Below, in pieces: positions 16,917 through 37,931 of a DNA stretch of 64,000 bases. The stretch comes from Poseidonia sp. (lineage in GTDB: Archaea > Thermoplasmatota > Poseidoniia > Poseidoniales > Poseidoniaceae), in contig JASLVM010000002.1 in NCBI GenBank assembly GCA_030741355.1, positions 51,932 to 115,931 of the forward strand, in the 5' to 3' direction. The translations under genes and the position numbers were made by a program. The first letter of the stretch is position 1; each line of letters starts with the position of its first letter. The notes under the pieces were generated by a model. The model was not told the origin of the DNA and ran no database searches. It saw nothing but the letters and a program-made list of their open reading frames with translations.

Positions 16917-16950
16917 TGGAAGTATATCACGCCTGCCCCGTTGGCGAACG

Positions 16951-17190
16951 TCAAATGGCGGTGGGAGCGACGTGCCCGTCGCCTTTGTCATCGGGTTGAC
17001 GAACACGCGACCAAACACCGCCCATCAATTCGTCGTGGTGACCTTGACAGTAATGGAAACGGCGGTAGGCCTCACGGAAGGAATAGGCTTTCTTGCCCGT
17101 GGCGACCAAGTAGCCCTCCGGCGAAAGACGCGAGACGATGGTGCCAACTTCTTGGCATCCTGGGAAGTCGCACACCGGTTCACCGTCCAT
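16951..17190 (-). CDS. Small Cys/His-rich protein (putative metal-binding), last gene of the carboxylase cluster
   Basis: 79 aa with an ATG start: MDGEPVCDFPGCQEVG...FHYCQGHHDEL. It fits exactly between the BCCP gene and the next gene. I did not recognise a family. Confidence 0.4.
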   Translation of the reverse strand: MDGEPVCDFPGCQEVGTIVSRLSPEGYLVATGKKAYSFREAYRRFHYCQGHHDELMGGVWSRVRQPDDKGDGHVAPTAI

Positions 17191-21782: not shown

Positions 21783-23570
21783 ATGTGCGGCATCGCAGGC
21801 GTTCTTGGCCATCCCGATGCCACCGTTTTGCAACGGATGAATCAACTTCAACAACACCGTGGCCCTGATGAAAATGACGTGTGGATGGACGAGGCGGTCG
21901 GGTTTGCTCACGCCCGTTTATCCATTCTGGACCTCGTTTCAAGCCAACAACCAATGAGTGACCACGACGGTGCCGTCATGGTCTTGAACGGCGAGATCTA
22001 CAATCATCGAGAACTCCGTTTACTCCATCCATCCTATGGATTCACGACCTCAGGCGATACAGAAGCCGTATTGGCGGTTCATCGGTCCATGAGAAGCAAA
22101 ACGAAAAGGCCGCTTACGGCCAAAGAGCACGCAACTTGGTTATCGTCGCTTGACGGCATGTATGCCCTCTCGTTGTGGAACCCAACGGACGGTCAATTGA
22201 TCCTTGCTCGAGACCCAATGGGCATCAAACCGTTGGTGCGCACAATGATTGACGGAACCATGTTGTTCGCCAGCGAAGTCAAAGCGTTTCAAGCCCACGA
22301 AGGCCATCAACCAGAAATTGACGAATTGGCGTTGGCTGCGAGATTGGTGTGGGAATATCCACTTGACGCCACGACACTTCTGAAAGGCGTCCACCAAGTC
22401 AGGCCGGGAACGGTCGAGCGATGGACCCTTGATGAACATGGACAAGCAACCTTGCTTGACATCGCCGACATCGAACGTCAACACCTCAATCCCATGCCCA
22501 CATGGGACCCTAACATGAACGCAGGCGAACTGTTGGAAACCTTCGTTGAGGGTGTTCAGCAACGGCTGCTCGCCGACGTACCGGTGGGCATCGTGCTTTC
22601 AGGAGGGCTGGACTCCAGTCTTGTCGCTGCGGTCGCTCATGAGGCGGCCGAGCGAGCAGGACAAGACGTTCCTGCTTGCTGGACGGTGGCGGAAAGCGAA
22701 GAGAACCCCGATTGGGTCGCCGCCGAGCAAGTGGCTGCACACCATGACCTCACGCACCATCAACACCTGTTGGAAGCAGACGCCTTTGAGAAGCGACTAC
22801 CCGACTTGGCCTGGCACGGCGAAGATGCCGATGTGACGGTCATGTTCTTCCATCCGCTGTTTGAGCACATGTCAAATCATGTAAAAGTCGGATTATGCGG
22901 CCAAGGCGCCGATGAATTGCATGCCGGTTATCCAAGATACGGCCACTTGGACGGCCACAAGGCGGTGCTGAATCAGCGTATGGCTGCTCTGCCCGAGGCC
23001 CACCAACGCGCATTGCTGAAAGGAGGCCTTTCCCCAAGGGACGGTTGGTACCAAGCCACCCACGACCCGTCTGAAGTGACCGCTGATTTGCAAAACATGC
23101 TCAACTTCGAACTTGAGCACGGCCAGCTCAGTAACTTTCAACTTCGCTTGGTTGACCGCCATTCGATGGCACATTCCCTTGAGGTTCGTGTCCCCTTCCT
23201 TGGCCGGGCCCATCGTAGAGCTTCTTACGCCCTCCCAATGGATTGGAAACGCAGCACACAACGAGAGGAAAAGGCAGCCCTTCGTCGAGCTGCCGACCGA
23301 ACCAACCTTCCCAAGGACATCGTACGGCGACCAAAACTTCCAGCCGGGCGAGCGACCGCTCCAACCATGCTCCAAACATTCCTTGACGACCGGGGTAGCC
23401 AAATCGAGGAATTGATGACGCACTACAATCAGTGGAGTGCCGTACTCAAAGGGCAAGAAGAATTGGCCATCGGTTTGGGTCTGTTCGAGGCTCTGCATCT
23501 ACGTCAAGACGGCCATAAGCACGCCGGACGCTCCATTGATGCATTGTTGAATGAGGTGATTTCAGGATGA
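21783..23570 (+). CDS. asnB: Asparagine synthase B-type glutamine amidotransferase
   Basis: The N-terminus is MCGIAGVLG (Ntn Cys2). It also has NGEIYNH..LR and the PP-loop GIVLSGGLDSSLVAA. Confidence 0.85.
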   Translation: MCGIAGVLGHPDATVLQRMNQLQQHRGPDENDVWMDEAVGFAHARLSILDLVSSQQPMSDHDGAVMVLNGEIYNHRELRLLHPSYGFTTSGDTEAVLAVHRSMRSKTKRPLTAKEHATWLSSLDGMYALSLWNPTDGQLILARDPMGIKPLVRTMIDGTMLFASEVKAFQAHEGHQPEIDELALAARLVWEYPLDATTLLKGVHQVRPGTVERWTLDEHGQATLLDIADIERQHLNPMPTWDPNMNAGELLETFVEGVQQRLLADVPVGIVLSGGLDSSLVAAVAHEAAERAGQDVPACWTVAESEENPDWVAAEQVAAHHDLTHHQHLLEADAFEKRLPDLAWHGEDADVTVMFFHPLFEHMSNHVKVGLCGQGADELHAGYPRYGHLDGHKAVLNQRMAALPEAHQRALLKGGLSPRDGWYQATHDPSEVTADLQNMLNFELEHGQLSNFQLRLVDRHSMAHSLEVRVPFLGRAHRRASYALPMDWKRSTQREEKAALRRAADRTNLPKDIVRRPKLPAGRATAPTMLQTFLDDRGSQIEELMTHYNQWSAVLKGQEELAIGLGLFEALHLRQDGHKHAGRSIDALLNEVISG

Positions 23571-24769
23571 ATCTAAGAGACCAAAACCAACTTTTGGAAG
23601 ACAAGCGCGCAGAGATCACCGCTTGGATGAAAAAGAAACGTTCGGAAGTGCCCATCCCCATCTACGGCAGCGTTGATGTTCGTGATGCAGGTTGGAAAAT
23701 TGGAGTGGTCGATGCCAATCACTTTCCCGCTGGTTTCAACAACGTCTCCAAAGAAAACCTCATGGAACTTGCCGACTTGTTCAAAGAGCATGTTCACCGG
23801 TCGCATCCATCGTGCAAGTGGGTCCACATCTATCCAGAAAGCCATACCAGAAACCCCGGTTATGTCGAAAACATCGCCAGCATCAAGTCCATGATTGAGC
23901 AAGCAGGTTTCTCCTGTACGGTCGGTTCACCCGACCTTAACGAATTTGGTGCTCTCAACGGATTATCCGGCCCCTTGTTGTTGCAATCTGTCCGTGTGGA
24001 TGAGACGGGTGAACTCGAAGTGGACGGCGCCCCTCCTGACTTGATTCTGCTCAACAACGATTTGACCGATGGAGCGATTCCAGGCGTCCAAAGCACGAAC
24101 ATCACCCCCCCGCCCCACATGGGTTGGTTCCGACGGCGTAAATCACACCATTACGAGATGCTCAAACCCTATGTTGACGAGATGGCAGCGCTCTTGTCGA
24201 TCGACGCGTGGCATTTGATGCCCGATTGGTTTGTTTCACAAAACAAGTGCTTGACGGAAGAAGCCTGCAAAATCAAACTTGCTGAAGAAATTGACGAATT
24301 TCTTGACGGCCTTCGTGAGAAGTACGCCACGCTCGGCATCGACCGAGAACCGACCGTCGTGATGAAGAACGACAGCGGCACGTACGGCCTTGGCATCATG
24401 ATGCTGACCGCAGGTGAGCAAATCCTGAACCTCTCCAATCGAAAGGCGAACAAACTCCGCTACGCCAAGGGAGGGGCAGAGGTTGAAAATTTCCTCATCC
24501 AAGAGGGCATACCGACGGCGTTAGCCACCGAAACCGGCGAGACATTGGAACCCGTGGTCTACCTCGTGGACGGGGAAGCAGCCTCGTGGTTTTACCGAAT
24601 CAATGCGAAGAAATCCGACATGGACAACCTCAACTCGCCCAGTGCACGTTTCGAGAACTACGAAGACGCTGAAAACCCGCACATTCGGGAGGCACATGGC
24701 TGGCATGCCTTGGTCGCAGAACTGAGCATGCTCGCCATGGGAGCCGAAGCCGAAGTCTGGTCGAGTTAA
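23567..24769 (+). CDS. ATP-grasp-like ligase resembling the rare GshA-type glutamate-cysteine ligase family (tentative)
   Basis: 400 aa. IPIYGSVDVRDAGWKIGVVDANHFPAGFNNV matches my recollection of the N-terminal signature of the Acidithiobacillus-type GshA family. VVMKNDSGTYGLGIMM and ENFLIQEGIPT are ATP-grasp-like. The start overlaps the asnB stop (ATGA). Confidence 0.5.
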   Translation: MNLRDQNQLLEDKRAEITAWMKKKRSEVPIPIYGSVDVRDAGWKIGVVDANHFPAGFNNVSKENLMELADLFKEHVHRSHPSCKWVHIYPESHTRNPGYVENIASIKSMIEQAGFSCTVGSPDLNEFGALNGLSGPLLLQSVRVDETGELEVDGAPPDLILLNNDLTDGAIPGVQSTNITPPPHMGWFRRRKSHHYEMLKPYVDEMAALLSIDAWHLMPDWFVSQNKCLTEEACKIKLAEEIDEFLDGLREKYATLGIDREPTVVMKNDSGTYGLGIMMLTAGEQILNLSNRKANKLRYAKGGAEVENFLIQEGIPTALATETGETLEPVVYLVDGEAASWFYRINAKKSDMDNLNSPSARFENYEDAENPHIREAHGWHALVAELSMLAMGAEAEVWSS

Positions 24770-24806: not shown

Positions 24807-25484
24807 ATGAGCCAGCGCGTGTGGTTGTACATTGGAACCATCGCCATCGGGCTTTGGATTTCCGCCACGGCCGCTGGAGGTGTCCTCCCGGATGCCTGGG
24901 CGGAATGGCCAGTAAACATCTGGTGTTGGGGTGTTTTTGCGTTCATCTACCGCCACGCCGACCGCAAAGAGCGGATTGAAATGATCGCCGTTGTGGCTTT
25001 GGCCACACCGATGGAACTCTTCTTTTCGGAGGTTTGGCTTGTGTATGAATATCAGCGCGAATTCATGCCACTCTTTGTCCCGGCAGGGCATTATTTCCTC
25101 TTTGATTTGGGCCGAAGAGCTGCTTCACGGATGCGAACCGAGATGGCGCTGCCGCTCCTCCTGCCCTTTGTTCCCATGGTAGCCTATGGGGCATGGACGG
25201 GTGGAGACACCTCTGGCGTGTTCATGCTGATCCTGGTGTTGGCCTTCACCAAGTGGGGGCCTCAACCCCGATTGTACGCCGCCATGGCATGGGCCGCATT
25301 GGCCATGGAATTATGGGGCACCTACCTTCAAAATTGGGAATGGGCCAGAGAGGTCCCATGGACTGGATTAACCGCATGGAATCCCCCCCTTCTGGTGGGA
25401 GCGTTCTACTGTTTTGGTGATGTTTTGGTTAACCTGTGCGTTGCCAAGTTTCAAGGGGAACCTACCACCGAGGGGATACCATGA
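24807..25484 (+). CDS. Polytopic membrane protein of unknown function
   Basis: 225 aa, W-rich, with about 6-7 hydrophobic helices. Its stop overlaps the ferredoxin start (ATGA). Confidence 0.55.
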   Translation: MSQRVWLYIGTIAIGLWISATAAGGVLPDAWAEWPVNIWCWGVFAFIYRHADRKERIEMIAVVALATPMELFFSEVWLVYEYQREFMPLFVPAGHYFLFDLGRRAASRMRTEMALPLLLPFVPMVAYGAWTGGDTSGVFMLILVLAFTKWGPQPRLYAAMAWAALAMELWGTYLQNWEWAREVPWTGLTAWNPPLLVGAFYCFGDVLVNLCVAKFQGEPTTEGIP

Positions 25485-25813
25485 CTGGCGCTGACGAGTT
25501 GCGTAAGCGCCGAGAGCAAGAGGCGCTTCGTATTCGAACAGCCTTGAATCGCCAGCGTGGGGAACAACGGGCCAACACCAAGGGTGGAGAGGGCACCGTG
25601 GCCTTTGTCGAGGAACGCAAATGCATTGGTTGCGACCAGTGCACCATCGTTTGCGATGACGACGCCATTGAATTGTACTTCGTAGATGTTCGTAGCCCGC
25701 TGATGTCGGTGGAAAGCAACCGCAAGGCGAAGATTATTCGAGACGCTTGCACAGGGTGCAGGCTGTGTGTTTTGGCGTGTCCAACCGACGCCATCACGAT
25801 GATTGACCGATGA
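25481..25813 (+). CDS. 2x[4Fe-4S] ferredoxin with a basic N-terminal extension
   Basis: The cluster motifs are CIGCDQCTIVCDDDAI and CTGCRLCVLACPTDAI. The ATG at 25481 is coupled to the upstream gene. Confidence 0.8.
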   Translation: MTGADELRKRREQEALRIRTALNRQRGEQRANTKGGEGTVAFVEERKCIGCDQCTIVCDDDAIELYFVDVRSPLMSVESNRKAKIIRDACTGCRLCVLACPTDAITMIDR

Positions 25814-25823
25814 GGTGAACCCA

Positions 25824-26108
25824 ATGTCAAAGAAAGGAAAGGATGCAACGGCTCAACGCTTTGGAGGAGAATTTGGACCCTACCGAAAGCCGGGGACCGA
25901 AGGTGTCTCGCTTTCCACGTTCAAGAACCTCGTTTGGACCTCAAACATCGGCGGTCTCCTTCTTGTTGTGCTCGCTCTGGAGTTGCTCTTTGTGCAGCAG
26001 CGATTTATGTGGGGTTTCCTGTCCTTGGTGGCCGGTGTGGCCATCGCCCTGTTCCCATCCAACTACGAAATCGTGGGGATGAGCGATGATGAAGAGGAGA
26101 TGGATTAA
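25824..26108 (+). CDS. Small two-TM membrane protein
   Basis: The ATG at 25824 is preceded by GAGGTGA (Shine-Dalgarno-like). The sequence MSKKGKDATAQRFGG... is followed by two hydrophobic helices and an acidic tail (DDEEEMD). Confidence 0.45.
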   Translation: MSKKGKDATAQRFGGEFGPYRKPGTEGVSLSTFKNLVWTSNIGGLLLVVLALELLFVQQRFMWGFLSLVAGVAIALFPSNYEIVGMSDDEEEMD

Positions 26109-26119
26109 TCCAGATTGGT

Positions 26120-26518
26120 TTAGAGCCCGGCGAAAACCAACAAGAGGCACAACAGTGCTGAGATAGCGAACGCCACGCTTGCACCGATCCACAGAAGGTT
26201 CCGCCCGTTCATGTAGCCGTAAATCACCATCCCAAGGGCCAAGATTGGGCAAAGTAAGATGGAAAGAAAAGCCCAAAGAAGAACATCCCAGGTATCACCC
26301 ACAAGAATGACGGAGAGCACTAAACCGCAACACGTCGCTAGAAACGGAACGAGCAAACCAATCCAGAAGTCCCTTGGCTGAATCATTGGGTCATGGGCCT
26401 GGCGGTCTAGGTTATCCCACTCAAACTCTTCATCGCAATGCGGGCATTCAAACAAACCCTCAGCCGTGTCAGGAAGTTCCATGCCTTCGTCACAATGAGG
26501 ACATGCGACAACGACCAT
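26120..26518 (-). CDS. Zinc-ribbon membrane protein, last gene of the Rieske/cyt b operon
   Basis: The ATG at 26518 gives MVVVACPHCDEGMELPDTAEGLFECPHCDEEF (CxxC...CxxC), followed by 3-4 TM helices. The longer track ORF (to 26722) overlaps the upstream gene. Confidence 0.55.
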   Translation of the reverse strand: MVVVACPHCDEGMELPDTAEGLFECPHCDEEFEWDNLDRQAHDPMIQPRDFWIGLLVPFLATCCGLVLSVILVGDTWDVLLWAFLSILLCPILALGMVIYGYMNGRNLLWIGASVAFAISALLCLLLVFAGL

Positions 26519-26567
26519 GTGCGTATCTACCAACTGTCGTGGAATAAAGGTTGAGCCGTAGACCGAC

Positions 26568-29378
26568 TCAAGCCTCGACGTTCTCAACGGCGCTGGGCTC
26601 GGAAGCCAGGGTGCTCTTCTGCTCGTTGACTTGACGAGCGAGGAAGGAAACGACGTCCAAGATTTCGATGTCAGCATAGGCTTCGTCGCCCTCGAACTTG
26701 AGGCACTCAAAGTGAGAGACACACTTTGGACACGAGGTCAACATGGTCTCAGCACCGGTCGCACGAACTTCTTCCATTCGGGTGACACGGAGGGAACGAG
26801 CGTTCTCGTTGCATGACATCATGCTCGAAACACCGCAGCACATGGCGTCTTCGCCGCTGTGCTCCATCTCAACGATTTCAACGCCTTCGACGGCGTTGAT
26901 GAGTTCACGAGGTTCGTCGTAAATGCCCATTTGTCGGCCGAGTCGGCACGGGTCGTGGTAGGTGACGGTGGTGTCGTCGGTCTTGAGGTTCATGTCAAAG
27001 CCTTGCTCGATGAGGTATTCTGTGGTGTGCATGACCTTGACGTCTTCCAGTTCATAGTCACGGGCGAAGGTTCGGAAACACTCAGCACAGGACGAGACCA
27101 AGGTATCAATACCGGATTCGTTGATCTTGCGCTGATTGTACGCCTTGAGCTTCTCAAAGACTTCGTCCAAACCTTGCCACTTCTGGTCGTGGCCACAGCA
27201 CTTGAGGAAGTCTCGGCCGAGGTAGGCCACATCGGTGCCCATTTCCTCGAAGAGGGTGAACGCCGCCGTCGTGGTGTCGCCAAGGTTCATCGTTCCTTCG
27301 TTGACGTGCGAGAAGACCATTTCCTGGTCGAGGTAGTCAACGCATCCAGGATAGTAGCCCACATTGGAGGTGATGGGGTAGTCTTCCGTGGCGATGAAAT
27401 CGTCATCGGCTGCTTCCTCGGCTTCAGCGTTCAAGACCGCTTGAAGCACGGTGTGGGGAATCTCTGCTTGCGGCCCGCCAACGATGAGCGAACGGCGAAT
27501 GTCGACGTACGAGTCATAGTTCACGAGTTGCGGGCAAGCGTTGGTGCACGCCGTACAGGTCAAACAAGAATACAACGGCACACCGTCATCTTCGTTGTTC
27601 CACGAATTGTAGATGATGTTGAGTTTATCACCGCCGTTGAAGAGACGAACTGGACAGGCATCGTCGCACAGGTCGCAGCCGTAGCACTTGTTCATCTCGA
27701 ATTCGTAGCCACGGGCCATGTAGCGCAACAAGACGAACACGAGGGCTCCGAAGGTGATACAGGGAATGAACATGGCATAGGTGAGTTTTGCGTCCAATGA
27801 CTTGGGGTTTTGGTGGTACGTCGGGTTCTCAATGTAAGAGAAACTCGAGCCGCCAAGGGCCATTTCCTCACTGTTGGAGAGGTTGACCGTGTAGCCAGCC
27901 AAACCAGCAGGGGCGTTTTCGTCCCACACCAAGAGCGGTTGATAGCTGGCGATGCTGAAGGAGGTCTCGGTCGTGATGCTGTCGTTCAAGGCGAGGGCTC
28001 CACTGATCACCACATCGTAGGTGTAGTCGTAGGTGCCCACGGCCATTTCCACCGTAGCGCCTTCACAATCGGCGAAAGAAACCATCTCTTTGCCAGATGC
28101 ATCGGTCACCGTAAGCGTGGTGGCGACCATGGTTTGTGTGGACACATCGTTGATCTTTCGCTCGCTGGAGCGGAATTCGCACGTCAAGTCCGTGGTGAGG
28201 GTGGTGACCTCTTCAGGGTGGCCTTCTGGGAACAACGTGGTGTCTTCAGTGATGGTGAAAGAACCGCTCACACTGTACCCCTCGCCACCGTTGAAGGTGG
28301 TACCCGCAGCCGCAGCGTTGATGCCGTTTTCAGCATCTTGATGCCCGTTCGCATCGTTGAAGTCCGTGATGATGTAGCGGGCGGGTTGGTAAATGTTCCA
28401 ATTCAGCCACGCCGTGGTTGGTACAACACCGGTTCCTGACCAGCCTCGGTCGTCTGTGAATTCGTTCACATCGTGAACATGAACATCGGCAGGTTGTGTT
28501 CGCATGGCTTCCAATTCACCATAATCCTTGATGGTGAGCAAACCTTTGGCATCCCAGAACCCTTTGTCGTAGGTGTCGAAGGTGGCCACGGTTGCGGCCG
28601 AGGAAAGAATGAGGGCACCGACGATGAGTTGGCGGCTCTTGGCGACGGTGAAACCGGCGCCCCATGCCCGAATCAACAGACCACGACCGATAAAGTAGAC
28701 ACAAATCCACATCAACACACCGGTCATGACCCACGGTATTGCATTGAACACCTCCGCAATCCACGGTTCACGTGTTCCACAAAGGAGATCGCCGTGCGAG
28801 TCGAGTTTACAGAAATCCGATCTGTTTTTCCCGTATAATTCAAGGAAGATGTTGATGGAAAACACCGAGATGAACCAAATGTGAGCGAGGTAAACGGCAC
28901 CCGCTGCTGCAAACCATGGGTCTTCAACAGGTCGCTTCTCACGGCCACCCAAGAAAGGAGGAAGAGCGAGAATACCGACGGGAATACCGGTGAGCGCAGC
29001 GCCCCACCAAGCAGCGTTCCAAGGGAACATCGGTTGGCCGACGATATCGCCGATGAATCCGGTAGGAACCACGAACTGCGGAAGGTATTCGCCCCAACGA
29101 AGGTAACCGTACGAGAACAACACATACCAGTCAGGAAACACGAACCCTGCTTGAGCATACGGGTCGGCTGCACCGTGAAGTGGAGGCGGAATCAACCAAG
29201 CGTAGAAGAGAAGAATGGAAAGCATGGAGGCGAAAATGATGCTGTCACGCAACACTTCGTGCGGCCAAAAGCCGTGACCGGTTCGCGTTCGCTTTCGCTT
29301 TTCCTCTGCTTTCTGCAGCTGCTCTTTTTCCTCCATGTACATGGAGGCGACTCGTCCAAAATTGTCAATCAGTCCCAT
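26568..29378 (-). CDS. Fusion protein: cytochrome b C-terminal half (subunit IV-like) + extra TM helices + extracytoplasmic domain + TM + HdrD/GlcF-type Fe-S/CCG module
   Basis: Residues ~35-100 are FWPHEVLRDSIIF...PDWYVLFSYGYLRW (the PEWY motif). Residues 565-616 hold CYGCDLCDDACP and CLTCTACTNACP. The two CCG domains are YYPGC..KCCGHD..SSCAEC and YHDPC..MCCGVS..TSCPKC. Confidence 0.8.
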   Translation of the reverse strand: MGLIDNFGRVASMYMEEKEQLQKAEEKRKRTRTGHGFWPHEVLRDSIIFASMLSILLFYAWLIPPPLHGAADPYAQAGFVFPDWYVLFSYGYLRWGEYLPQFVVPTGFIGDIVGQPMFPWNAAWWGAALTGIPVGILALPPFLGGREKRPVEDPWFAAAGAVYLAHIWFISVFSINIFLELYGKNRSDFCKLDSHGDLLCGTREPWIAEVFNAIPWVMTGVLMWICVYFIGRGLLIRAWGAGFTVAKSRQLIVGALILSSAATVATFDTYDKGFWDAKGLLTIKDYGELEAMRTQPADVHVHDVNEFTDDRGWSGTGVVPTTAWLNWNIYQPARYIITDFNDANGHQDAENGINAAAAGTTFNGGEGYSVSGSFTITEDTTLFPEGHPEEVTTLTTDLTCEFRSSERKINDVSTQTMVATTLTVTDASGKEMVSFADCEGATVEMAVGTYDYTYDVVISGALALNDSITTETSFSIASYQPLLVWDENAPAGLAGYTVNLSNSEEMALGGSSFSYIENPTYHQNPKSLDAKLTYAMFIPCITFGALVFVLLRYMARGYEFEMNKCYGCDLCDDACPVRLFNGGDKLNIIYNSWNNEDDGVPLYSCLTCTACTNACPQLVNYDSYVDIRRSLIVGGPQAEIPHTVLQAVLNAEAEEAADDDFIATEDYPITSNVGYYPGCVDYLDQEMVFSHVNEGTMNLGDTTTAAFTLFEEMGTDVAYLGRDFLKCCGHDQKWQGLDEVFEKLKAYNQRKINESGIDTLVSSCAECFRTFARDYELEDVKVMHTTEYLIEQGFDMNLKTDDTTVTYHDPCRLGRQMGIYDEPRELINAVEGVEIVEMEHSGEDAMCCGVSSMMSCNENARSLRVTRMEEVRATGAETMLTSCPKCVSHFECLKFEGDEAYADIEILDVVSFLARQVNEQKSTLASEPSAVENVEA

Positions 29379-29393
29379 TTTCTTCCCTCCGTA

Positions 29394-30260
29394 TCAATGC
29401 GGCTCCGCGATACCTTGTACCCATACGATGAACAGATGTATGATGATGAGCGTGGTGACGATGACAGGGAGAATGAACACGTGAATGAAGTACATTCGAG
29501 TGACCGTCAGCGGGGTGAGTTCAGAGCCAGAGAACAGCAAGGTGGCGATGTACTTGCCAACCAAGGGACTTGAGTTGGCCAGGTTGATGCCGATGATGGC
29601 CGCACCGTAAGCTAGACTGTCCCAAGGCAGAAGGTAGCCTGAGTAGCCGAACACGATGGTGAGGGCCATCAAAGCGACACCGATGAGCCAGTTCAATTCA
29701 CGTGGGTTGCGGTAAGCACCGGTGAAGTAGACACGGCACATGTGCAAGAACACGCTCGCCACCATGAAGTGTGTCGTCCAGTGGTGAACAGCACGCAAGA
29801 TGTAGCCAAAGGGCAACTCGGTCATGATGTACTGCATGCTTGCATAAGCAGGAGAAGGATCACCTTCACCGCCGGGGACGTAGTAGATACCAAGAACCGT
29901 TCCCGTGATCACCAAGATGATGAAGGAAAGGAAGGAAATGCCACCAAGACAGTACAGAGGATACCAGTACCAAATGATGCGGAGTTTGTATTTCTCTGCG
30001 TGAGTCAACGGCATTTGTCGATGCATGTTGTAGTAGGCACCTTTGGACATGTTCCAGTAGTCCTGAAGACGGAAACGGGTGTCAAGCCAAGAGAACACCC
30101 AAAGGAACGATCGTTCAGCAACCCCCATCTTACCGGAGGATTCAACCGCTCGCAGAATGTCTCGACGAGGCATTTCTTCGTTCTCCTTGCGCAGCGTAAA
30201 GGCTACGAGCAGAACGAGGAAGGCGATGAAAAACCACAGAATCCAAAACATCGTTGTCAT
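29394..30260 (-). CDS. Cytochrome b, N-terminal di-haem half (cyt b6-like)
   Basis: Motifs seen: LRAVHHWTTHFMVASVFLHMCRVYFTGAYRNPRELNWLIGV, GYSGYLLPWD, and RMYFIHVFILPVIVTTLIIIHL. The four His haem ligands are in the canonical spacing. Confidence 0.85.
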   Translation of the reverse strand: MTTMFWILWFFIAFLVLLVAFTLRKENEEMPRRDILRAVESSGKMGVAERSFLWVFSWLDTRFRLQDYWNMSKGAYYNMHRQMPLTHAEKYKLRIIWYWYPLYCLGGISFLSFIILVITGTVLGIYYVPGGEGDPSPAYASMQYIMTELPFGYILRAVHHWTTHFMVASVFLHMCRVYFTGAYRNPRELNWLIGVALMALTIVFGYSGYLLPWDSLAYGAAIIGINLANSSPLVGKYIATLLFSGSELTPLTVTRMYFIHVFILPVIVTTLIIIHLFIVWVQGIAEPH

Positions 30261-30269
30261 GTCTACACC

Positions 30270-31115
30270 TCAATCGCAGTACGTGTACCAATCCACGTAG
30301 TCAGTCAGGCCCTCGATGACCCCGCCGTTCAGTTGAATGGGAATGATGGGGAGGCCCACAGGAGCAGGACCGCCGGCTCGGCGGATACCTGCGTAGTTGA
30401 ACGTTGCACCGTTGGAACGGTTTCGGTTGGTGTTCATCTCGAGCGCCGTCGGGTCAAAGCGAGAAGAGTGACAGATGCAGAACATCTTCGTGCCACCGTC
30501 ATCGCCACCACCGGGCGTCCAGGAGTCTTCCGTGAATGAGTTGGACACAAGTTGCCATCCGGGGATGCAGCACAAGTGAGTGCATCGGCCAAACACCATC
30601 ACGAGGTCATCGGATGGCATCAACCGAGGGTCGGCTTCGGCGAGGTCTTCGAAATGACCGACATACTTGCCGGTTTCATCGTAGCCTTCCATGAATTGGA
30701 AACGAGCCTTGCCGTTGGATTCCGGGGTGCCTGCATATTTGGAGTGAGCGACGTAGTTGACGACCACGGGGACGCCGTTCCAAACGCCAGCAGCACCGGC
30801 GGTTCCGGTCGATGAACTGGCGGCTTCAGCTTCAAAGTCGGCTTTCGTCATGGGCTGCAAGTGCTTGGCACCGTACCATGCTTCGTCTTCACGTCCTTTG
30901 GCCCAAAATTGGACGGCCAAATCACCGCCGCCGCCACCGCCAGGTGGCAAGAGGATGGCGGCAAAGCCGAGCATGCCGAGGGAGGCCGTCAGCACACCAG
31001 CAGCGGTATTGAAACCGTATCGAAGGAATTGACGACGATTGATGGAAGTGGTCGAGAGACCAAGAGCGTCATCGCCGTCGGAGGGGGCGGGTTTGAGTTC
31101 GTATTCACGCGCCAT
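30270..31115 (-). CDS. Rieske [2Fe-2S] protein with a Tat signal
   Basis: It has the twin-arginine motif INRRQFLRYG followed by a TM. The Rieske boxes are CTHLCC and CICHSS. Confidence 0.85.
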   Translation of the reverse strand: MAREYELKPAPSDGDDALGLSTTSINRRQFLRYGFNTAAGVLTASLGMLGFAAILLPPGGGGGGDLAVQFWAKGREDEAWYGAKHLQPMTKADFEAEAASSSTGTAGAAGVWNGVPVVVNYVAHSKYAGTPESNGKARFQFMEGYDETGKYVGHFEDLAEADPRLMPSDDLVMVFGRCTHLCCIPGWQLVSNSFTEDSWTPGGGDDGGTKMFCICHSSRFDPTALEMNTNRNRSNGATFNYAGIRRAGGPAPVGLPIIPIQLNGGVIEGLTDYVDWYTYCD

Positions 31116-31121
31116 GTTGCA

Positions 31122-31568
31122 TCACCACTTGTACTCCCGCCAGTCTTTCTGGTGCTCTGGAATGAATTTGTTTTGAGCATGCTTGACAATGATGGTGTCA
31201 GGCAAAATGAATTTCAAGTAAATGATGCCGATCATGATGAGCGTGGTCATGGTCATGGCCAAGTGGAATGAAAGCTGCTGTTGGTCCCATCCTTTGGCGA
31301 GACCGTAAATCATGGAGAAGCTCCAGTAGCAAATCCAAAACAAGCCCCAGGCCAAGAAAAACATGGTGAGGTAAGATGCGCCGGACGGAGCGAGGGAAGC
31401 ACTGACAATCGTTCCCGGCTCGGCGATGTTGAACACTCCGTGGTCGATTGCGCTCGACATCTCTTCCTCGGTCAATTCAGCACCCTCAAGCGCCGTTCGA
31501 GCATCGTCTACGCTGATGCTACCGTCGGCAACACCTCTGAGCAAGGTCGTGATTGTGTCGTCCATCAT
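31122..31568 (-). CDS. Small membrane protein (2-3 TM) of the Rieske/cyt b operon
   Basis: 148 aa. Its start overlaps the upstream stop (ATGATGA), and it ends 6 nt before the Rieske start. Confidence 0.5.
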   Translation of the reverse strand: MMDDTITTLLRGVADGSISVDDARTALEGAELTEEEMSSAIDHGVFNIAEPGTIVSASLAPSGASYLTMFFLAWGLFWICYWSFSMIYGLAKGWDQQQLSFHLAMTMTTLIMIGIIYLKFILPDTIIVKHAQNKFIPEHQKDWREYKW

Positions 31569-32410
31569 TGATCACCTCGGCGCATGAGTTTGTATCGCAA
31601 TCGGAGTTGGTTGCTTCGGCCTTTGTACGACGTTGAGAAACCGTAGCGAAGGAGTAAGCCGGCAAAGACCACAACGCCAATGACCGCCCCGAAGCCCAGA
31701 AGTCCGAGCCAATGCGCTCGGAGCTTTGCACCCATGTGGTGCAGGTCAACACCGTGGTGGGCAGGTTCTGGAGGACTGACGTTGCCATCACCAGCGAAGA
31801 GCGTTCTCGTACCCATGGCGGCCGAGGCTTCATCGCCTTCATTGAGGGCGAAGTTGAGTTGATTCCATCGATCCTCAACGCCTGGCACTTGGTCGCCGTT
31901 CACCGAATTTCCGACAATCCAAAAGTTAACCGTTCCAGCACCAGAGTCGGCAGGAGCGGTCCACTCGAAGACCCAGGCACGGTCTTCGTTGGCGGAAGAG
32001 GCCTCGGTGTGGGTGAGGGTCTGCTCGTCCACCGCACCGTCAATCTCCCAATTTTGTGCTACATCGCTGGCCAAGGTGCCAAGCGAGACTCGCATGGAGA
32101 AACCGGCGGTGTATGTCCCGGTAGCAGGTGGGCCGCCGATGAGTTGGAGATGAAGCGTGTAGGTTTCGCCTGCGACCCAAGCATAGGGCACGTCATCAAG
32201 AATCACCTGGACGGCGTTGTCGGCGACTTCGTTGTGGCAAAGGCAACCTGATTTGGCAACATCGTCAATGTCGACTTGGCCGGTGGAGCCTTGGTGCGAC
32301 TGAGACCCGCCAATGCCCCCGTGATAGGATGAGGCGAGGGCAGGAACGAGGAGCAAAACCCCAACCAGCGTGAGCAGGCTGGTGCGGTACGCGAGAGAAG
32401 TTTTGAGCAT
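31565..32410 (-). CDS. Secreted, C-terminally anchored protein; candidate redox partner, first gene of the operon
   Basis: It has a signal peptide (LLTLVGVLLLVPALASS), a single Cys pair followed by His (SGCLCHN), a beta-rich ~200-aa domain, a His-rich juxtamembrane segment (PAHHGVDLHHMGAKLRAHW), a TM and a basic tail. Confidence 0.5.
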   Translation of the reverse strand: MLKTSLAYRTSLLTLVGVLLLVPALASSYHGGIGGSQSHQGSTGQVDIDDVAKSGCLCHNEVADNAVQVILDDVPYAWVAGETYTLHLQLIGGPPATGTYTAGFSMRVSLGTLASDVAQNWEIDGAVDEQTLTHTEASSANEDRAWVFEWTAPADSGAGTVNFWIVGNSVNGDQVPGVEDRWNQLNFALNEGDEASAAMGTRTLFAGDGNVSPPEPAHHGVDLHHMGAKLRAHWLGLLGFGAVIGVVVFAGLLLRYGFSTSYKGRSNQLRLRYKLMRRGDQ

Positions 32411-32591: not shown

Positions 32592-32900
32592 ATGAGGACC
32601 ATGGGAAACTACACCTTCGACAACACCTACAACCTGTCCGACAACCAACTCCAACAATTGGATGAGGCCGAAGAGTTGATGCTCAAAGGAGCGCTTGGGG
32701 CAGCGGAATCCATGCTTTTGAGCATGCTGAAAGGCGACGAAGAATGCATCCCCGTTCTGTCAAATTTAGGCCACCTCTACGGCCGCCACCTCTCTGAATT
32801 TGCAACCGCCGTCGAATACTATGACCGCGTGCTCGCCCTCGAGCCCGACAACGCTTGGGCGAGGGACGCACGCCGACGCTACCTTCGCTACCTGGACTGA
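32592..32900 (+). CDS. Small TPR-repeat protein
   Basis: LSNLGHLYGRHLSEFATAVEYYDRVLALEPDNAWARDARRRY is a TPR consensus. Confidence 0.6.
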   Translation: MRTMGNYTFDNTYNLSDNQLQQLDEAEELMLKGALGAAESMLLSMLKGDEECIPVLSNLGHLYGRHLSEFATAVEYYDRVLALEPDNAWARDARRRYLRYLD

Positions 32901-32917
32901 TTTGGACACCAAAGTTC

Positions 32918-33859
32918 ATGGGGAAGCCATGCACCGTGGAGGTCATGGACCCCTCCACCATTCTGGTTGCTGGAGTGGGGGGCATTGGATGTTCTTGGGC
33001 CCAGCAAGCCCATGCAAAATGTCACGGAGGAGCCCATCTGGTGCTCATCGACGCCGACGAATCCAGTTTCAAAACCGGTGACGACATCCATGTTCTCAGG
33101 CTCGGCCACGCCTTGGACAGCGTGGGATGTGCTGCGCTCCCACCGCTGGCAGAACAACGGATGAGGGGGCTCAGCACATTGACGAATCAATTGCTTCAAA
33201 ACACGGAACTGGTCATCCTGCTCACTGGATTGGGCGGGGGTGTTGGCACGGGTGCTGCACACGAATTTGCTCGCCAAGCCCGTCAATCCGGCGCAGTGGT
33301 ATTAGCGGTCGCCGGCCTGCCTTTTGAAAGTCAACCAACGCGAATGGAAATCGCCCAAGAAGGCTTGGAACGCCTCGAGAAAACAGCCCATGTCACGGTC
33401 CGGCTCTCCCTCGATCGATTGGCTCGCCAAGCCAGAGAAAAAGGACAACTGTGGCAAATGGGAGCCGAATGGATTGAAGATTTGGTTGACGGTTTGGTTC
33501 GAACCTTGATGCGTATGGGCCTCATCAACCTCGACCTGATGGACCTCCGAGCCATTGTTGACCAAACCGGAGAGGCGACCCTGTTGGTAGGCGTGGGCCG
33601 CCCAGACGACCCGAAAGGCATCCTCGAAGCCGCCCTCAAGGCACCGCTTGCCGCCATGGACGTCGGTGGAGCAAAAGGATGTCTCATCCAAGTCGAGGGT
33701 GGATTGGGCATGACCATCGGCCAGGTTGATGCCGTCGCCGACCTGTTTACGAGTGCGTTGGATAACGATGCACAGGTCATTCTTGGAGCCCGGGTCAGCG
33801 AGGACCTGAACGATACCATCCGAGTGGTCACGCTGCTCTCTGGCATACGCCCTGCCTAA
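32918..33859 (+). CDS. Divergent FtsZ/tubulin-superfamily protein
   Basis: ILVAGVGGIGCSWA (G-box 1) and ELVILLTGLGGGVGTGAAHEFA (the tubulin signature GGGTG(S/T)G, here as GGGVGTG) are followed by VLAVAGLPFESQPTRMEIAQEGLERL, which aligns to the FtsZ pattern PFxFEGxxRxxxAxxGixxL. The first ATG is at 32918; the track start at 32855 is a TTG. Confidence 0.65.
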   Translation: MGKPCTVEVMDPSTILVAGVGGIGCSWAQQAHAKCHGGAHLVLIDADESSFKTGDDIHVLRLGHALDSVGCAALPPLAEQRMRGLSTLTNQLLQNTELVILLTGLGGGVGTGAAHEFARQARQSGAVVLAVAGLPFESQPTRMEIAQEGLERLEKTAHVTVRLSLDRLARQAREKGQLWQMGAEWIEDLVDGLVRTLMRMGLINLDLMDLRAIVDQTGEATLLVGVGRPDDPKGILEAALKAPLAAMDVGGAKGCLIQVEGGLGMTIGQVDAVADLFTSALDNDAQVILGARVSEDLNDTIRVVTLLSGIRPA

Positions 33860-35810: not shown

Positions 35811-36302
35811 ATGGGAGGAGGAGGGACAGCGCCCGCCATGAAGATGAGCGATGTGTTCATTCTCACCGGCCTAACGATGTTGCTGGGCGGCTTGTTCATG
35901 CATGCATGGGTCACTCCAATCGAGCTCAATGGAGAGGACCCTCCTTACACAAACGGAGCGTCCATGATGAAGGGCGATGCGTTTGATTTACGGGTCACGG
36001 TTGAAGAGGAAACAACCCTCAGGATTGTGTTGAAGGACGAAAAGGGCAACATCATCAGCGCTGAATCCTTTGTTCTGGCATCTGGCCAGAAACACAGGGA
36101 AGTGATCAGCATGGACGAATCCGGTTATTTCACCTATGAAATCGACACCAAAGGTGTCAACGCGGCCGTTGAAACCTCAATCGTGAGGAAGTACATGATC
36201 GATATGCTCCCGTTCCCCCTCGGAGCGATGTTCCTGGCCTATGGTCTGTATCAGCGGCGTGAATCCGAAGACGAGGTCTTGGATGCTGAACTAGAGGATT
36301 GA
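35811..36302 (+). CDS. Bitopic membrane protein with a small outside domain
   Basis: The ATG at 35811 gives MGGGGTAPAMKMSDVFILTGLTMLLGGLFMHAW, followed by a ~110-aa beta-rich domain, a second TM and an acidic tail. Confidence 0.45.
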   Translation: MGGGGTAPAMKMSDVFILTGLTMLLGGLFMHAWVTPIELNGEDPPYTNGASMMKGDAFDLRVTVEEETTLRIVLKDEKGNIISAESFVLASGQKHREVISMDESGYFTYEIDTKGVNAAVETSIVRKYMIDMLPFPLGAMFLAYGLYQRRESEDEVLDAELED

Positions 36303-37730
36303 CCAAACCACATCGTCCGGTTCATCCACGACATCATCGACCCCATCAAGCCGGAGCGAACCCGAGGATGTGAGCCCCAGAAGTGCCGCCTTTGAATTTC
36401 TATAGATAAGAGGTCCCAGAAGAGTTGCACCGTTGATAACTTCCTGCTCCACACGATCGATGTTGACCGTTTGAGGCAATTGAGATACCTGCTGGAACAA
36501 GGACGCCACCATGGCGTGTAAAACAGGATGGAGGGCTGACGGATTGGTGAGAAGGCCGAGCTCGTGAAGGTGGGCGTGTTCCTCCCCACTTCCCTCGACA
36601 TTCAAACCAAGGCCAAGCACAACGTGATGGGCATCTCCTTGGGACACCGCCTCGAACAAGATGCCCCCGGTTTTTTTCATGCACCCATCCCCCGCACGAA
36701 GAAAGACATCGTTTGGCCACTTGAGGCACACCTCCATTGCAGAACATCCACTCATGAAACGAATCAGACGTACGAGCGCCTCCCCGACGCGCAACTGGTC
36801 GTAGGTTGAGTGAGGCCAACCCTGACCGGAATGAATCAACCAAGAGGCCATGAACGCGCCCGGGTAAGACGTCCATGTGCGACCTCGACGCCCTCGCCCT
36901 GTGGTTTGCAGGTCTGCTCGAACCGTGGCCCCCGTCGCTCCTGCCAATTTGATCACCTCATCGTTCGTGCTGATGGTGGTTTGATGATGGATGAACGGCG
37001 AGTTAGCGTAAGGTTTCCACATAGCGATAACGGACAATCGTTCGCCGTCTCCAAAAGATTTGGTGGCGATGCATCTTGCGGCGATCCCTTGAGCCCAAGC
37101 AGCCTCACAGGCGGTGTCTCCCACGCCCTTGGATGAGACGGTAAGGTAGGCAACCCCACCGCTGGAAAGAAGCGAAGTGGAGGCGAGGCGTTGGGCCATC
37201 CTCAGGAAAAGACCCACCCGGTCGGTATCTGTCAGTGCGGCCTCTTCCATCGGGCCAAGTGCCCCCTCCACCAGAGCATCTTCTCCGAGATAAGGCGTGT
37301 TCCAAACCACCACATCGTAGGTTTGGTCGCCCCCCCACTGGGCGCTTTGACCGTCGATCGAAGGACCCGGCCCTCCTTCCAACACCCTCGCTGAAAGTCC
37401 GTTTTGAGCAAAGTGTGCTCGAGTACAAGCCACGGCCATGGGGTTGATGTCACACGCAGTAACATCGCAGCCAAGACGTGCAGCATGGAGCGATAGGGCA
37501 CCCGAACCACAGCCAATTTCCAACCACCTCGTTTTTGGAGGAAGACGTTCGTAAGTCAGCACCGATGCGAGGAAATCGGTATCTTCTCGAGGAGGGTAGA
37601 CAGTGGGGGGGATGACCATGGAAAATGTCTCCCCGGTGGGGGCCCTCCAATCCAGGGCTTTTGCGGCTCGTTCGAGGCGTTCAATTTCCGCCTCCGCTTG
37701 GAGGGCGTCAAAAGATGTCTCGCCGCTCAT
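36291..37730 (-). CDS. birA: Fusion protein: class-I SAM methyltransferase (HemK/Mtq2-like) + biotin-protein ligase BirA
   Basis: The N-terminal half has VYPPREDTDFL, LEIGCGSGALSL and VVWNTPYL (an NPPY-type motif). The C-terminal half has LQTTGRGRRGRTW (GRGRxGRxW) and KWPNDVF. The ATG is at 37730; position 37757 is a TTG. Confidence 0.75.
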   Translation of the reverse strand: MSGETSFDALQAEAEIERLERAAKALDWRAPTGETFSMVIPPTVYPPREDTDFLASVLTYERLPPKTRWLEIGCGSGALSLHAARLGCDVTACDINPMAVACTRAHFAQNGLSARVLEGGPGPSIDGQSAQWGGDQTYDVVVWNTPYLGEDALVEGALGPMEEAALTDTDRVGLFLRMAQRLASTSLLSSGGVAYLTVSSKGVGDTACEAAWAQGIAARCIATKSFGDGERLSVIAMWKPYANSPFIHHQTTISTNDEVIKLAGATGATVRADLQTTGRGRRGRTWTSYPGAFMASWLIHSGQGWPHSTYDQLRVGEALVRLIRFMSGCSAMEVCLKWPNDVFLRAGDGCMKKTGGILFEAVSQGDAHHVVLGLGLNVEGSGEEHAHLHELGLLTNPSALHPVLHAMVASLFQQVSQLPQTVNIDRVEQEVINGATLLGPLIYRNSKAALLGLTSSGSLRLDGVDDVVDEPDDVVWSIL

Positions 37731-37931
37731 AAACTGCTCCAAAGCGCATCCGGTCAAGAGGCTATGCTTACGTTTTCATTCCAAAATGTGGAAATTTTGC
37801 GAATATGGGCAGATTTATGAAGGGGGCAGTCCAGCAACCTTTGCGCCTTCCTCGTGGCCCGTGTGGTCACGGCCAACACGAAACGTATAAGAAGGCCATG
37901 CAGGTCGGACAGAAAGCCCAAGTTGCTACAT

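Follow-up and report, generated by a model that had tools for sequence, protein, structure and literature searches.

We have analyzed a 64,000-nucleotide stretch of the genome of a Poseidoniales archaeon (Poseidonia sp., contig JASLVM010000002.1, positions 51,932 to 115,931), referred to as the window in what follows, and find that one of its minus-strand genes (g5, 26568..29378) encodes a 936-amino-acid protein in which the C-terminal half of a cytochrome b is fused to a complete HdrD-type Fe-S/CCG module. Profile searches and conservation among relatives both establish that this fusion, first noticed in what we will call the original prediction for this DNA, is real. The gene closes a minus-strand operon that runs from g1, encoding an anchored outer-face protein, through g2 (a small transmembrane (TM) protein), g3 (a Rieske protein) and g4 (a b6-type cytochrome b) to g5, and that is predicted to specify the respiratory complex III of the Poseidoniales, a quinol oxidase of the Rieske/cytochrome b6 type. 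The HdrD-type domain of g5 would be located on the cytoplasmic (n) side of the membrane, underneath haem b_n, a putative haem c_n and the Qi region, and through the fusion electrons may be able to pass directly between the cytoplasm and the complex's inner side. The Poseidoniales (Marine Group II, MGII) are uncultured and are among the most abundant archaea of the surface ocean, and to our knowledge HdrD-like subunits have until now been seen to pair only with NarI-type cytochromes.

The N-terminal part of g5 (residues 1-185, 28824..29378), comprising helices E, F and G, was assigned to the cytochrome b C-terminal half, or subunit IV, on the basis of a profile of the entire family matched against the PDB. 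With the window protein as query there was no direct match to Pfam Cytochrom_B_C (PF00032), a direct PDB search gave E values of only 0.29-0.8 with cytochrome b C-terminal domains, and a profile of the first 270 residues of 14 Poseidoniales homologues matched subunit IV of the b6f complex alone, at a marginal E of 0.03, with the WPxxxL, ADPFA and P[E/D]WY motifs nevertheless in register. Of the Pfam families anticipated in the original prediction, Cytochrome_B for g4 and CCG and Fer4_8 for g5 were recovered, whereas a direct Cytochrom_B_C match for g5 was not. An exhaustive search with the Poseidoniales profile reached distant relatives, many of which match Pfam Cytochrom_B_C directly with E values down to 1e-12. 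The family-wide profile (alignment A4), which has the window protein as its first sequence and includes these distant relatives, matches bc1 cytochrome b over its C-terminal half (residues 231-380) at E 2.5e-14 and subunit IV of b6f at E 1.9e-11, the matches spanning helices E to G. The Qo motif, PDWY at residues 82-85 of g5, is invariant in the alignments and was present in 22/22 family members examined. Because the family-wide profile gives these matches and PDWY occurs throughout the family, we regard the assignment of the g5 N-terminus to a cytochrome b C-terminal half/subunit IV as sound, predicted as it is from sequence. The alignment reveals no conserved His pair for haem in this subunit IV-like domain. 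With the fourth helix, H, included, subunit IV of the Poseidoniales consists of helices E, F, G and H.

Downstream of the membrane part, residues 555-640 (27459..27716) form a 2x[4Fe-4S] ferredoxin-like domain (Pfam Fer4_8/9/10, E ~3e-7; 2.9e-07 for the Fer4_8 4Fe-4S dicluster domain) with the motifs CYGCDLCDDACP and CLTCTACTNACP, all 8 Cys of which are invariant in alignments A1, A3 and A5. Residues 641-936 (26568..27458) contain two CCG domains (PF02754, E 2.8e-23), followed by an acidic tail and the stop. The ten CCG Cys (C679, C727, C728, C764 and C767; C811, C847, C848, C883 and C886) make up the set that would be expected for two non-cubane [4Fe-4S] clusters, and the CC and CxxC elements align to HdrB. 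The HdrD-type catalytic architecture that had been proposed for this region, two 4Fe-4S motifs plus two CCG domains, therefore stands, with the full HdrB-like ten-Cys set kept. All 18 Fe-S/CCG Cys are invariant in the Poseidoniales alignment and 17 of the 18 in a 48-sequence family alignment (A5), where C728 is at least 90% conserved. The best NCBIfam match of g5 is TfrB (E 2.9e-32), far below the TfrB cut-off, and the Hdr/DsrK scores are also far below theirs (39.9 vs 400 bits for DsrK).

The closest solved relative of the CCG module is mycobacterial EtfD (Rv0338c/IspQ; PDB 9ojn; sequence E 4e-24, Foldseek E 4e-14); Foldseek gives TM-scores of 0.76 with LutA, over the CCG pair, and 0.6-0.67 with HdrB. 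Like g5, EtfD combines TM helices, 2x[4Fe-4S] and two CCG domains in one polypeptide, in its case with haem b in the TM part, and it provides electron input to the quinone pool in an aerobe (PMC13083937). It differs in that its haem b domain is a five-TM HdrE/NarI-like unit as opposed to the bc-type C-terminal half of g5, and in lacking a Rieske partner. EtfD is moreover non-catalytic, since a Thr in place of the second Cys of the first CC leads to a linear [3Fe-4S] cluster, while the His of CPHC caps the second cluster, both clusters being shielded from solvent (PMC13083937); where EtfD has CT and CPHC, g5 has KCCGHD and CAEC. In a few compact relatives (P0148 and P0174) the second Cys of CC is lost, as in EtfD. 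The subunits of HdrDE and of DsrMK/HmeCD/TmcBC are also similar, a cytoplasmic HdrD-type polypeptide with 2x[4Fe-4S], two CCG domains and ten Cys being wired to a dihaem cytochrome b in the membrane. Their partner is, however, a NarI-type cytochrome b without Rieske protein or Qo site, whereas that of the Poseidoniales is of the bc/b6f type and has a Rieske protein. Poseidoniales are, in addition, neither methanogens nor sulfate reducers, and no mcr or methanogenesis genes were seen within the window.

A protein of this kind could also arise if two separate genes had been joined by a chimeric assembly or by a frameshift, an explanation to which we attach next to no probability. In a scan of GTDB species representatives that yielded 554 relatives the best 80, all Poseidoniales, were kept, and the full-length gene was present, contig permitting, in 80/80 of these, with the best matches 94-96% identical to g5. 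Public protein searches returned hundreds of full-length homologues (915-942 amino acids, 61-92% identity) from sources that include Poseidoniaceae and Thalassarchaeaceae, some of them on contigs of 1.5-3 Mb. Uninterrupted open reading frames (ORFs) in so many independent assemblies, the large contigs and all 80 representatives among them, together with the conservation of the residues at the junction, argue strongly against an artefact; we found no point in its support and reject it. The expectation that other Poseidoniales would carry the same fusion in the same setting has been borne out as well, the co-directional order g1-g2-g3-g4-g5 being found at 62/62 loci with enough upstream sequence. 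In public databases the Poseidoniales proteins are annotated as 'heterodisulfide reductase subunit D' or 'Fe-S oxidoreductase', names that miss the cytochrome b half.

Hydropathy analysis of g5 gives six TM segments (42-60, 126-144, 157-175, 207-225, 251-269 and 532-550), with a K/R-rich N-terminus and K/R-rich even-numbered loops, and the N- and C-termini are predicted to share one K/R-rich side. In established structures the N-terminus of subunit IV and of cytochrome b is on the n-side. Because six TM segments follow such an N-terminus the Fe-S/CCG module is predicted to be cytoplasmic, in agreement with the original prediction, and this location would fit the need for cytoplasmic Fe-S assembly. 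A first AlphaFold2 (AF2) model, based on 14 close homologues, was not usable (predicted local distance difference test score, pLDDT, 52). A second model from 48 diverse sequences (mean pLDDT 70.6) has the same helices as the hydropathy TM segments, a confident CCG module and a well-modelled beta-sandwich domain at ~355-515 (pLDDT 80-94), for which Foldseek returns generic beta-sandwich matches only. When the whole model was used the CCG module dominated the Foldseek search and no bc1/b6f chains were returned for the modestly modelled TM part, so that the structure model adds nothing to the subunit IV assignment.

Alignment with compact homologues (A3) shows how the Poseidoniales protein is put together: it is the compact form, that is helices E, F, G and H, Fer4 and two CCG domains, plus an insertion of ~350 amino acids between G and H. 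This insertion (residues 186-526, 27801..28823) is specific to the Poseidoniales, being absent from the compact homologues, and contains two TM helices (about 206-242 and 245-271) and the outside beta-sandwich domain with its conserved Cys pairs. C190, C200, C400 and C438 are invariant and all lie in predicted outside segments of g5, a pattern that fits extracellular disulfides. The return TM (residues 527-554, 27717..27800) is helix H according to alignment A3 and hydropathy, and appears as a helix over these same residues in the AF2 model. The TM count originally made by hand is correct in its six segments and return helix; what must be revised is that the last TM is helix H itself and that the supposedly extra part is an insertion between G and H. 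Standalone subunit IV-like relatives stop just past helix H at GYExKLNxxYYKxR, and the fusions continue from the same point as GYExxxNxCYxCxxCxxxCP.

The partner genes are those of a Rieske/cytochrome b operon, as had been proposed. The g4 product (288 amino acids, 29394..30260, minus strand) matches Pfam Cytochrome_B (PF00033, E 2.7e-41) and, as best PDB match, cytochrome b6 (1vf5_A, E 1.6e-43) with the four His aligned; its YCLGG aligns with FYCLGG of b6, the CxGG motif whose Cys binds haem c_n. H159/160, H173, H260 and H275 are 100% and C104 is 99% conserved, and the protein has an additional N-terminal TM. The Rieske [2Fe-2S] protein g3 (281 amino acids, 30270..31115, minus strand; TIGR01416, E 7.1e-9) has a Tat motif (RRQFLRY), one TM anchor, and boxes I (CTHLCC) and II (CICHSS), both of which align with the solved Rieske protein 7yr9_A; C178, H180, C183, C213, C215 and H216 are 100% conserved in 69 orthologues. 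The window copy has no Pfam hit to PF00355, a family that its counterparts do match at three loci of the wider archaeal family described below (L004, L086 and L088), and orthologues occur at three more (L087, L089 and L090). The small 2-TM subunit g2 (148 amino acids, 31122..31568, minus strand) is DUF7318-like (Pfam, E 0.0026). Its orthologues at L086, L087, L004 and L089, and the annotation of DUF7318 at the same operon position in related archaeal loci, point to a family-wide component of archaeal Rieske/cytochrome b operons.

The outer-face protein g1 (281 amino acids, 31565..32410, minus strand; NCBIfam choice_anch_V, E 5.5e-25) combines a signal-peptide-like N-terminus with a 'choice-of-anchor V'/Reeler-like domain and is anchored by a C-terminal TM (TMs 10-28 and 236-254). 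In 63 orthologues conservation is seen for a GCxCH motif (C56, C58 and H59), for H233 and for the TM/tail. H134 is also invariant, the C-terminal TM helix is near-invariant, and the basic tail ends in RRGDQ. There is no CxxCH in g1 and the operon encodes no cytochrome c; at L004, L088 and L089 the position of g1 in the operon is taken by a cytochrome c. A profile search against solved structures and Pfam searches with eight orthologues returned no cofactor family for g1. We consider this protein a candidate acceptor of Rieske electrons, that is, a functional analogue of cytochrome c1/f, and possibly an outer-face electron carrier of a new type.

In its overall plan the complex resembles cytochrome b6f and the Firmicute b6c-type complexes, with a split cytochrome b, a b6-like four-helix subunit with four His and CxGG, a subunit IV-like partner with a P(E/D)WY motif and a Tat-exported Rieske protein encoded alongside. 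The differences are that the Poseidoniales subunit IV has helix H, two more TM helices, an outside domain and the fused Fe-S/CCG module, that cytochrome f/c1 is absent with the Reeler-like g1 in that position, and that a DUF7318 subunit replaces PetG/L/M/N. A second comparison is with the Sulfolobus SoxLN-CbsAB/Thermoplasma-type system, an archaeal complex III analogue without cytochrome c1. The Sulfolobus operon encodes an outer-face C-anchored redox protein and a small hydrophobic protein, then the Rieske protein and cytochrome b, and so begins, like that of the window, with an outer-face C-anchored protein; its cytochrome b is, in contrast, long and unsplit and carries no fused Fe-S module. 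Pfam and PDB profile searches gave no sign of homology between g1 and CbsA.

Beyond the Poseidoniales compact fusions are found in Thermoplasmata, Geothermarchaeales and other archaea, always within Rieske/cytochrome b operons, and precomputed combinations of PF00032, Fer4 and PF02754 identify ~40 clusters of such proteins (540-800 amino acids), with Geothermarchaeales and Thermoplasmata among their source names. Orthologues of g2, g4 and g5 are detectable at L004, L086 and L087. At L004 the order is multihaem cytochrome c, small TM protein, Rieske protein, cytochrome b (with YCFGG), fusion, and HdrC-, HdrB- and HdrA-like proteins, with an FlpD (MvhD-like) gene farther downstream; L086, from a 2.28-Mb Thermoplasmata genome, has DUF7318, Rieske, Big_5 + cytochrome b, fusion and Fer4 + MvhD-like genes, and L087, from Geothermarchaeales, has DUF7318, Rieske-like, cytochrome b, fusion, FrhB-like, HdrA and MvhD genes. 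The fusion genes of these three loci are directly followed by HdrC/HdrB/HdrA-, MvhD(FlpD)- or FrhB-like genes (L004, 8992-12454; L086, 9794-11320; L087, 3707-8326), which suggests that in anaerobic or thermophilic lineages a Rieske/cytochrome b complex is physically coupled to a flavin-based bifurcating module. At other loci the attached module is a different one: subunit IV is fused to FrhB at L088 (7001-8596), to Fer4 only at L089 (a metagenome-assembled Halobacteria genome, 7001-8011), and to Fer4 at L090 (7001-10158), where a separate CCG protein and another Fer4 protein follow. All three variants are in DUF7318-Rieske-cytochrome b operons, and the CxGG motif is common to the cytochromes b of L004, L086, L088, L089 and L090. 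From this shared operon core with exchanged fused modules we conclude that the cytoplasmic end of subunit IV is where soluble redox modules are generally attached in an archaeal Rieske/cytochrome b family, which has exchangeable cytoplasmic-face modules, HdrD, ferredoxin and FrhB, and HdrA/MvhD genes as neighbors. Extracellular decoration would seem to be a further theme of the family, since the cytochrome b of some Thermoplasmata (758-876 amino acids; L086, 5343-7973, and the P0145 contig) has an N-terminal outside domain of the Big_5 (Ig-like) type, as compared with the beta-sandwich in subunit IV of the Poseidoniales. The Fe-S/CCG part has its closest Methanoperedens relative in an unfused protein, whose gene is the first of an HdrCBA-MvhD-FrhB cluster that has no cytochrome b in its vicinity.

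The range of fused modules bears on whether the CCG part carries electrons at all. It might instead be regulatory, redox-sensing or structural, responding to the state of thiols or ferredoxin and gating the Q-cycle with no net flux through its clusters, and a mycobacterial homologue was indeed once annotated as a putative redox sensor (IspQ, cited in PMC13083937). That homologue, EtfD, has since proved to be a bona fide electron-transfer enzyme (PMC13083937). A four-cluster wire that is conserved across phyla, that swaps with FrhB or ferredoxin modules and that stands beside HdrA/MvhD genes is, furthermore, typical of electron-transfer chains, and we consider a sensing or structural role quite improbable.

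A potential source of electrons is encoded next to the fusion. An RnfB-like 2x[4Fe-4S] ferredoxin gene (125 amino acids, 25436..25813, plus strand; Pfam Fer4_21, E 3.5e-14) adjoins it in 66/68 Poseidoniales loci, on either strand and at a median distance of 307 bp. The ferredoxin gene is overlapped by 11 nt by that of a small conserved 2-TM protein (101 amino acids, 25803..26108, plus strand; conserved motifs in 74 orthologues), which is present in 68/71 loci, has no family match in Pfam or NCBIfam, and may anchor the RnfB-like ferredoxin to the membrane. The ferredoxin is likely the redox partner of the cytoplasmic module, and the pair probably corresponds to what the MGII literature calls an 'orphan RnfB'. 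Surveys of the Poseidoniales had noted cytochrome b and Rieske proteins without a canonical complex III and an unexplained orphan RnfB (PMC6336850), and Tully 2019 describes an 'MGII specific' complex III, in which cytochrome b and Rieske alone were recognized, and an orphan RnfB without a place in the chain. The fusion locus plausibly links the two: the missing subunit IV is present, fused to an Hdr-type Fe-S module and with the RnfB-like ferredoxin gene adjoining, and these two loose ends can be brought together in a single, testable model for the connection between cytoplasmic reducing power and the quinone cycle.

In the model that we favor, to which we give an even chance of being correct, the operon encodes a complex III with an Fe-S input, whereby electrons from a cytoplasmic donor pass through the Fe-S chain to the n-side haems and Qi, with the quinol reoxidized at Qo. 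We infer that the Fe-S chain, as an electron port, hard-wires the n-side haems to cytoplasmic carriers. The reductant, most likely reduced ferredoxin acting through the RnfB-like ferredoxin but possibly a thiol pair oxidized at the CCG site, would deliver electrons via the Fe-S chain to haem c_n/b_n and from there to quinone at Qi; the quinol so made would be reoxidized at Qo of the same complex, one electron proceeding via the Rieske cluster and g1 to a terminal oxidase as protons are released outside. Such a complex would combine a donor:quinone reductase with a Q-cycle quinol oxidase, and precedents for the former include EtfD, HdrDE run in reverse and ferredoxin-dependent cyclic flow at b6f. 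In that cyclic flow electrons from stromal ferredoxin have been proposed to enter at haem c_n, which would make it the soluble-partner counterpart of the port proposed here; the Poseidoniales complex, if electrons do flow inward, would be its hard-wired analogue.

Several considerations lead us to favor this direction. FrhB-type modules are the F420H2-oxidizing input modules of Fpo/Fqo, and CCG proteins of the TfrB, GlcF and LutA type collect electrons from substrates. Flow toward the quinone is preferred because the sister modules include FrhB and ferredoxin, because LutA- and GlcD/GlcF-like dehydrogenase genes lie near the fusions at L086, L087 and L090, because the best NCBIfam match, TfrB, has a thiol-oxidizing CCG site, because of the adjoining RnfB-like ferredoxin, because an aerobic heterotroph has no obvious need for low-potential reductant from quinol, and because the closest solved relative, EtfD, runs from ETF through CCG/Fe-S and haem b to menaquinone (PMC13083937). 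By analogy with these systems, passage from a donor to Qi would be at least as likely as a disulfide-reducing outlet.

A number of observations weigh against electron input as we have formulated it. The catalytic HdrB-type Cys set is kept, without the Thr/His substitutions of EtfD, which fits a real disulfide/thiol site, and classical HdrDE runs outward, from a membrane carrier to a cytoplasmic disulfide. Haem c_n in g4 is putative, predicted from the CxGG motif by itself, and the first [4Fe-4S] cluster is presumed to be within electron-transfer distance of haem b_n/c_n. The best NCBIfam match of the ferredoxin, rnfB (TIGR01944, E 9.1e-14), is under the family cut-off. Finally, the ferredoxin adjoins the fusion in a strongly syntenic region, and because the unrelated TPR and FtsZ-like neighbors are also syntenic, with 100% conservation, gene linkage is weak evidence.

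Some of these same observations are what one would expect if electrons were to leave the membrane, in an outward bifurcating complex where Qo sends one electron to the Rieske cluster and the other via haems b_p and b_n (c_n) into the Fe-S chain, ending at a cytoplasmic disulfide at the CCG site or at ferredoxin and replacing or supplementing quinone reduction at Qi. We regard this as possible, though less probable than input. The disulfide could be that of a low-molecular-weight thiol or of a DsrC/lipoyl-type protein. HdrDE and DsrMK are established cases in which membrane-derived electrons reduce a cytoplasmic disulfide, for Rieske/cytochrome b complexes of anammox bacteria electron delivery to a cytoplasmic NAD(P) reductase subunit has been suggested, and HdrA/MvhD/HdrBC genes follow the fusion at L004, L086 and L087. 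The full HdrB/HdrD ten-Cys set is free of the substitutions that make EtfD non-catalytic (PMC13083937), PDWY goes with low-potential menaquinol systems and a more reducing b-haem chain (PMC4122944), and GshA, which makes gamma-glutamylcysteine, is encoded ~1.8 kb from the fusion in 39/56 loci. Against this, Poseidoniales are described as aerobic photoheterotrophs (PMC6336850) whose catabolism yields reduced carriers, leaving no clear role for a quinol-driven reductant; the complex would give up half of the electrons of each quinol and would have to run against the membrane potential; catalytic non-cubane clusters that are open to solvent should be sensitive to oxygen (PMC13083937); the operon has no consistently linked gene for a disulfide substrate or carrier; and both the FrhB sister fusions and EtfD point to input modules. 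The more general proposition that the module is a low-potential outlet, with the complexes of Poseidoniales and of the wider family acting as quinol-driven bifurcating enzymes that feed an Hdr-type site, or ferredoxin/F420 by way of HdrA/MvhD/FrhB, we hold to be rather unlikely. Were electrons to flow outward, quinone-based and flavin-based bifurcation would be naturally coupled in one membrane machine, and in either direction the fusion is relevant to the debate on what haem c_n does and to how bc complexes evolved from modular dehydrogenases.

Electron input through the n-side haems, as we favor, presupposes that quinone is reduced at Qi. The CCG/Fe-S module could itself be a quinone-reducing or membrane-surface site on the n-side that replaces or supplements Qi, along the lines of the type-E succinate:quinone reductases, in which electrons are believed to reach quinone by way of the CCG subunit. 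In quinone-linked dehydrogenases CCG proteins such as SdhE/SdhC, GlpC and LutA operate at the surface of the membrane, and it is LutA that gives the Foldseek TM-score of 0.76 quoted above. Yet g4 keeps CxGG and the haem ligands of the n-side, as is typical where a Qi pocket is functional, and a quinone site in the module leaves the FrhB/ferredoxin sister fusions and the adjacent HdrA/MvhD/ferredoxin genes unexplained; we think it very improbable.

A full-text literature search gave no report of subunit IV fused to HdrD within a Rieske operon, most subscription journals being outside the scope of this search, so that an earlier mention is possible. The suggestion that the fusion had not been described must be qualified: no account of the Rieske-linked HdrD form was found, but related bacterial fusions of cytochrome b with Fe-S modules were noted in 2014 (PMC4122944). 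Kao & Hunte 2014 (PMC4122944) report a small bacterial 'PDWF-FeS' clade in which cytochrome b is fused to 4Fe-4S + MvhD modules or to ferredoxin + flavin oxidoreductase modules, there being no Rieske gene in the cluster, and they point out that a whole cytochrome b subunit can belong to other complexes. Because of these bacterial fusions the concept is not wholly new, and they illustrate that the C-terminus of a bc-type cytochrome b can carry n-side redox modules. They differ from g5 in being bacterial, with PDWF, no Rieske gene and no CCG/HdrD reported, as against PDWY, a Rieske protein and Fer4 + CCG, and a handful of sequences were noted without the mechanism being developed (PMC4122944). 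What is new is the combination of modules, the modularity across the family and the universality in a globally abundant lineage, the modules themselves being known. The 'unusual Rieske/cytb complex' of Methanoperedens (PMC4683180) was considered as prior art and rejected, since its closest HdrD-like protein is unfused and not found with a cytochrome b.

All six minus-strand ORFs of the original prediction are present at the positions it had given and every motif that it quotes was found in the translations; g1 and g2 overlap by 4 nt and the later gaps are 6, 9, 15 and 49 nt. The extent of the operon has to be reduced to g1-g5, however. The sixth gene, g6 (26120..26518, minus strand), is a 3-TM ORF with a Zn-ribbon (CPHC...CPHC) for which a homologue was found in 1/74 related loci, L008 (80% amino acid identity), and in other close relatives its slot is filled by unrelated sequence. 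It is strain-variable and lies outside the conserved unit. Its slot, flanked by the fusion gene on one side and the ferredoxin pair on the other, seems to be a point of insertion that varies from strain to strain.

The genes for GshA (glutamate-cysteine ligase, E 2.5e-99) and an asparagine synthase-like protein (23567-24769 and 21783-23570, respectively, both plus strand) lie a short way downstream of the operon, and their synteny extends to about 70-80% of related loci. The presence of GshA implies a thiol pool of the gamma-glutamylcysteine type, a conceivable substrate of a CCG site. On the other side a 488-amino-acid protein (36291-37757, minus strand) combines a methyltransferase with a biotin/lipoate ligase (BPL_LplA_LipB) domain; the same fusion is also found upstream of the operon at L002/L003, lipoate-ligase genes are near the P0145 fusion, and a GcvH gene is near that of L087. 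We considered GshA and the lipoate-ligase-like neighbors as clues to a thiol or lipoyl substrate and rejected them, since the whole region is syntenic, including the unrelated TPR and FtsZ-like genes. The latter (32592-33859, plus strand) encode a small TPR protein and an FtsZ/tubulin-family paralogue of 334 amino acids and lie next to the operon, in divergent orientation, in 100% of informative Poseidoniales loci. Elsewhere in the window three large ORFs of 2409, 1394 and 1160 amino acids (56642-63871, minus strand; 12834-17018, minus strand; 47476-50958, plus strand), the last with thrombospondin type 3 repeats, probably encode surface/adhesion proteins.

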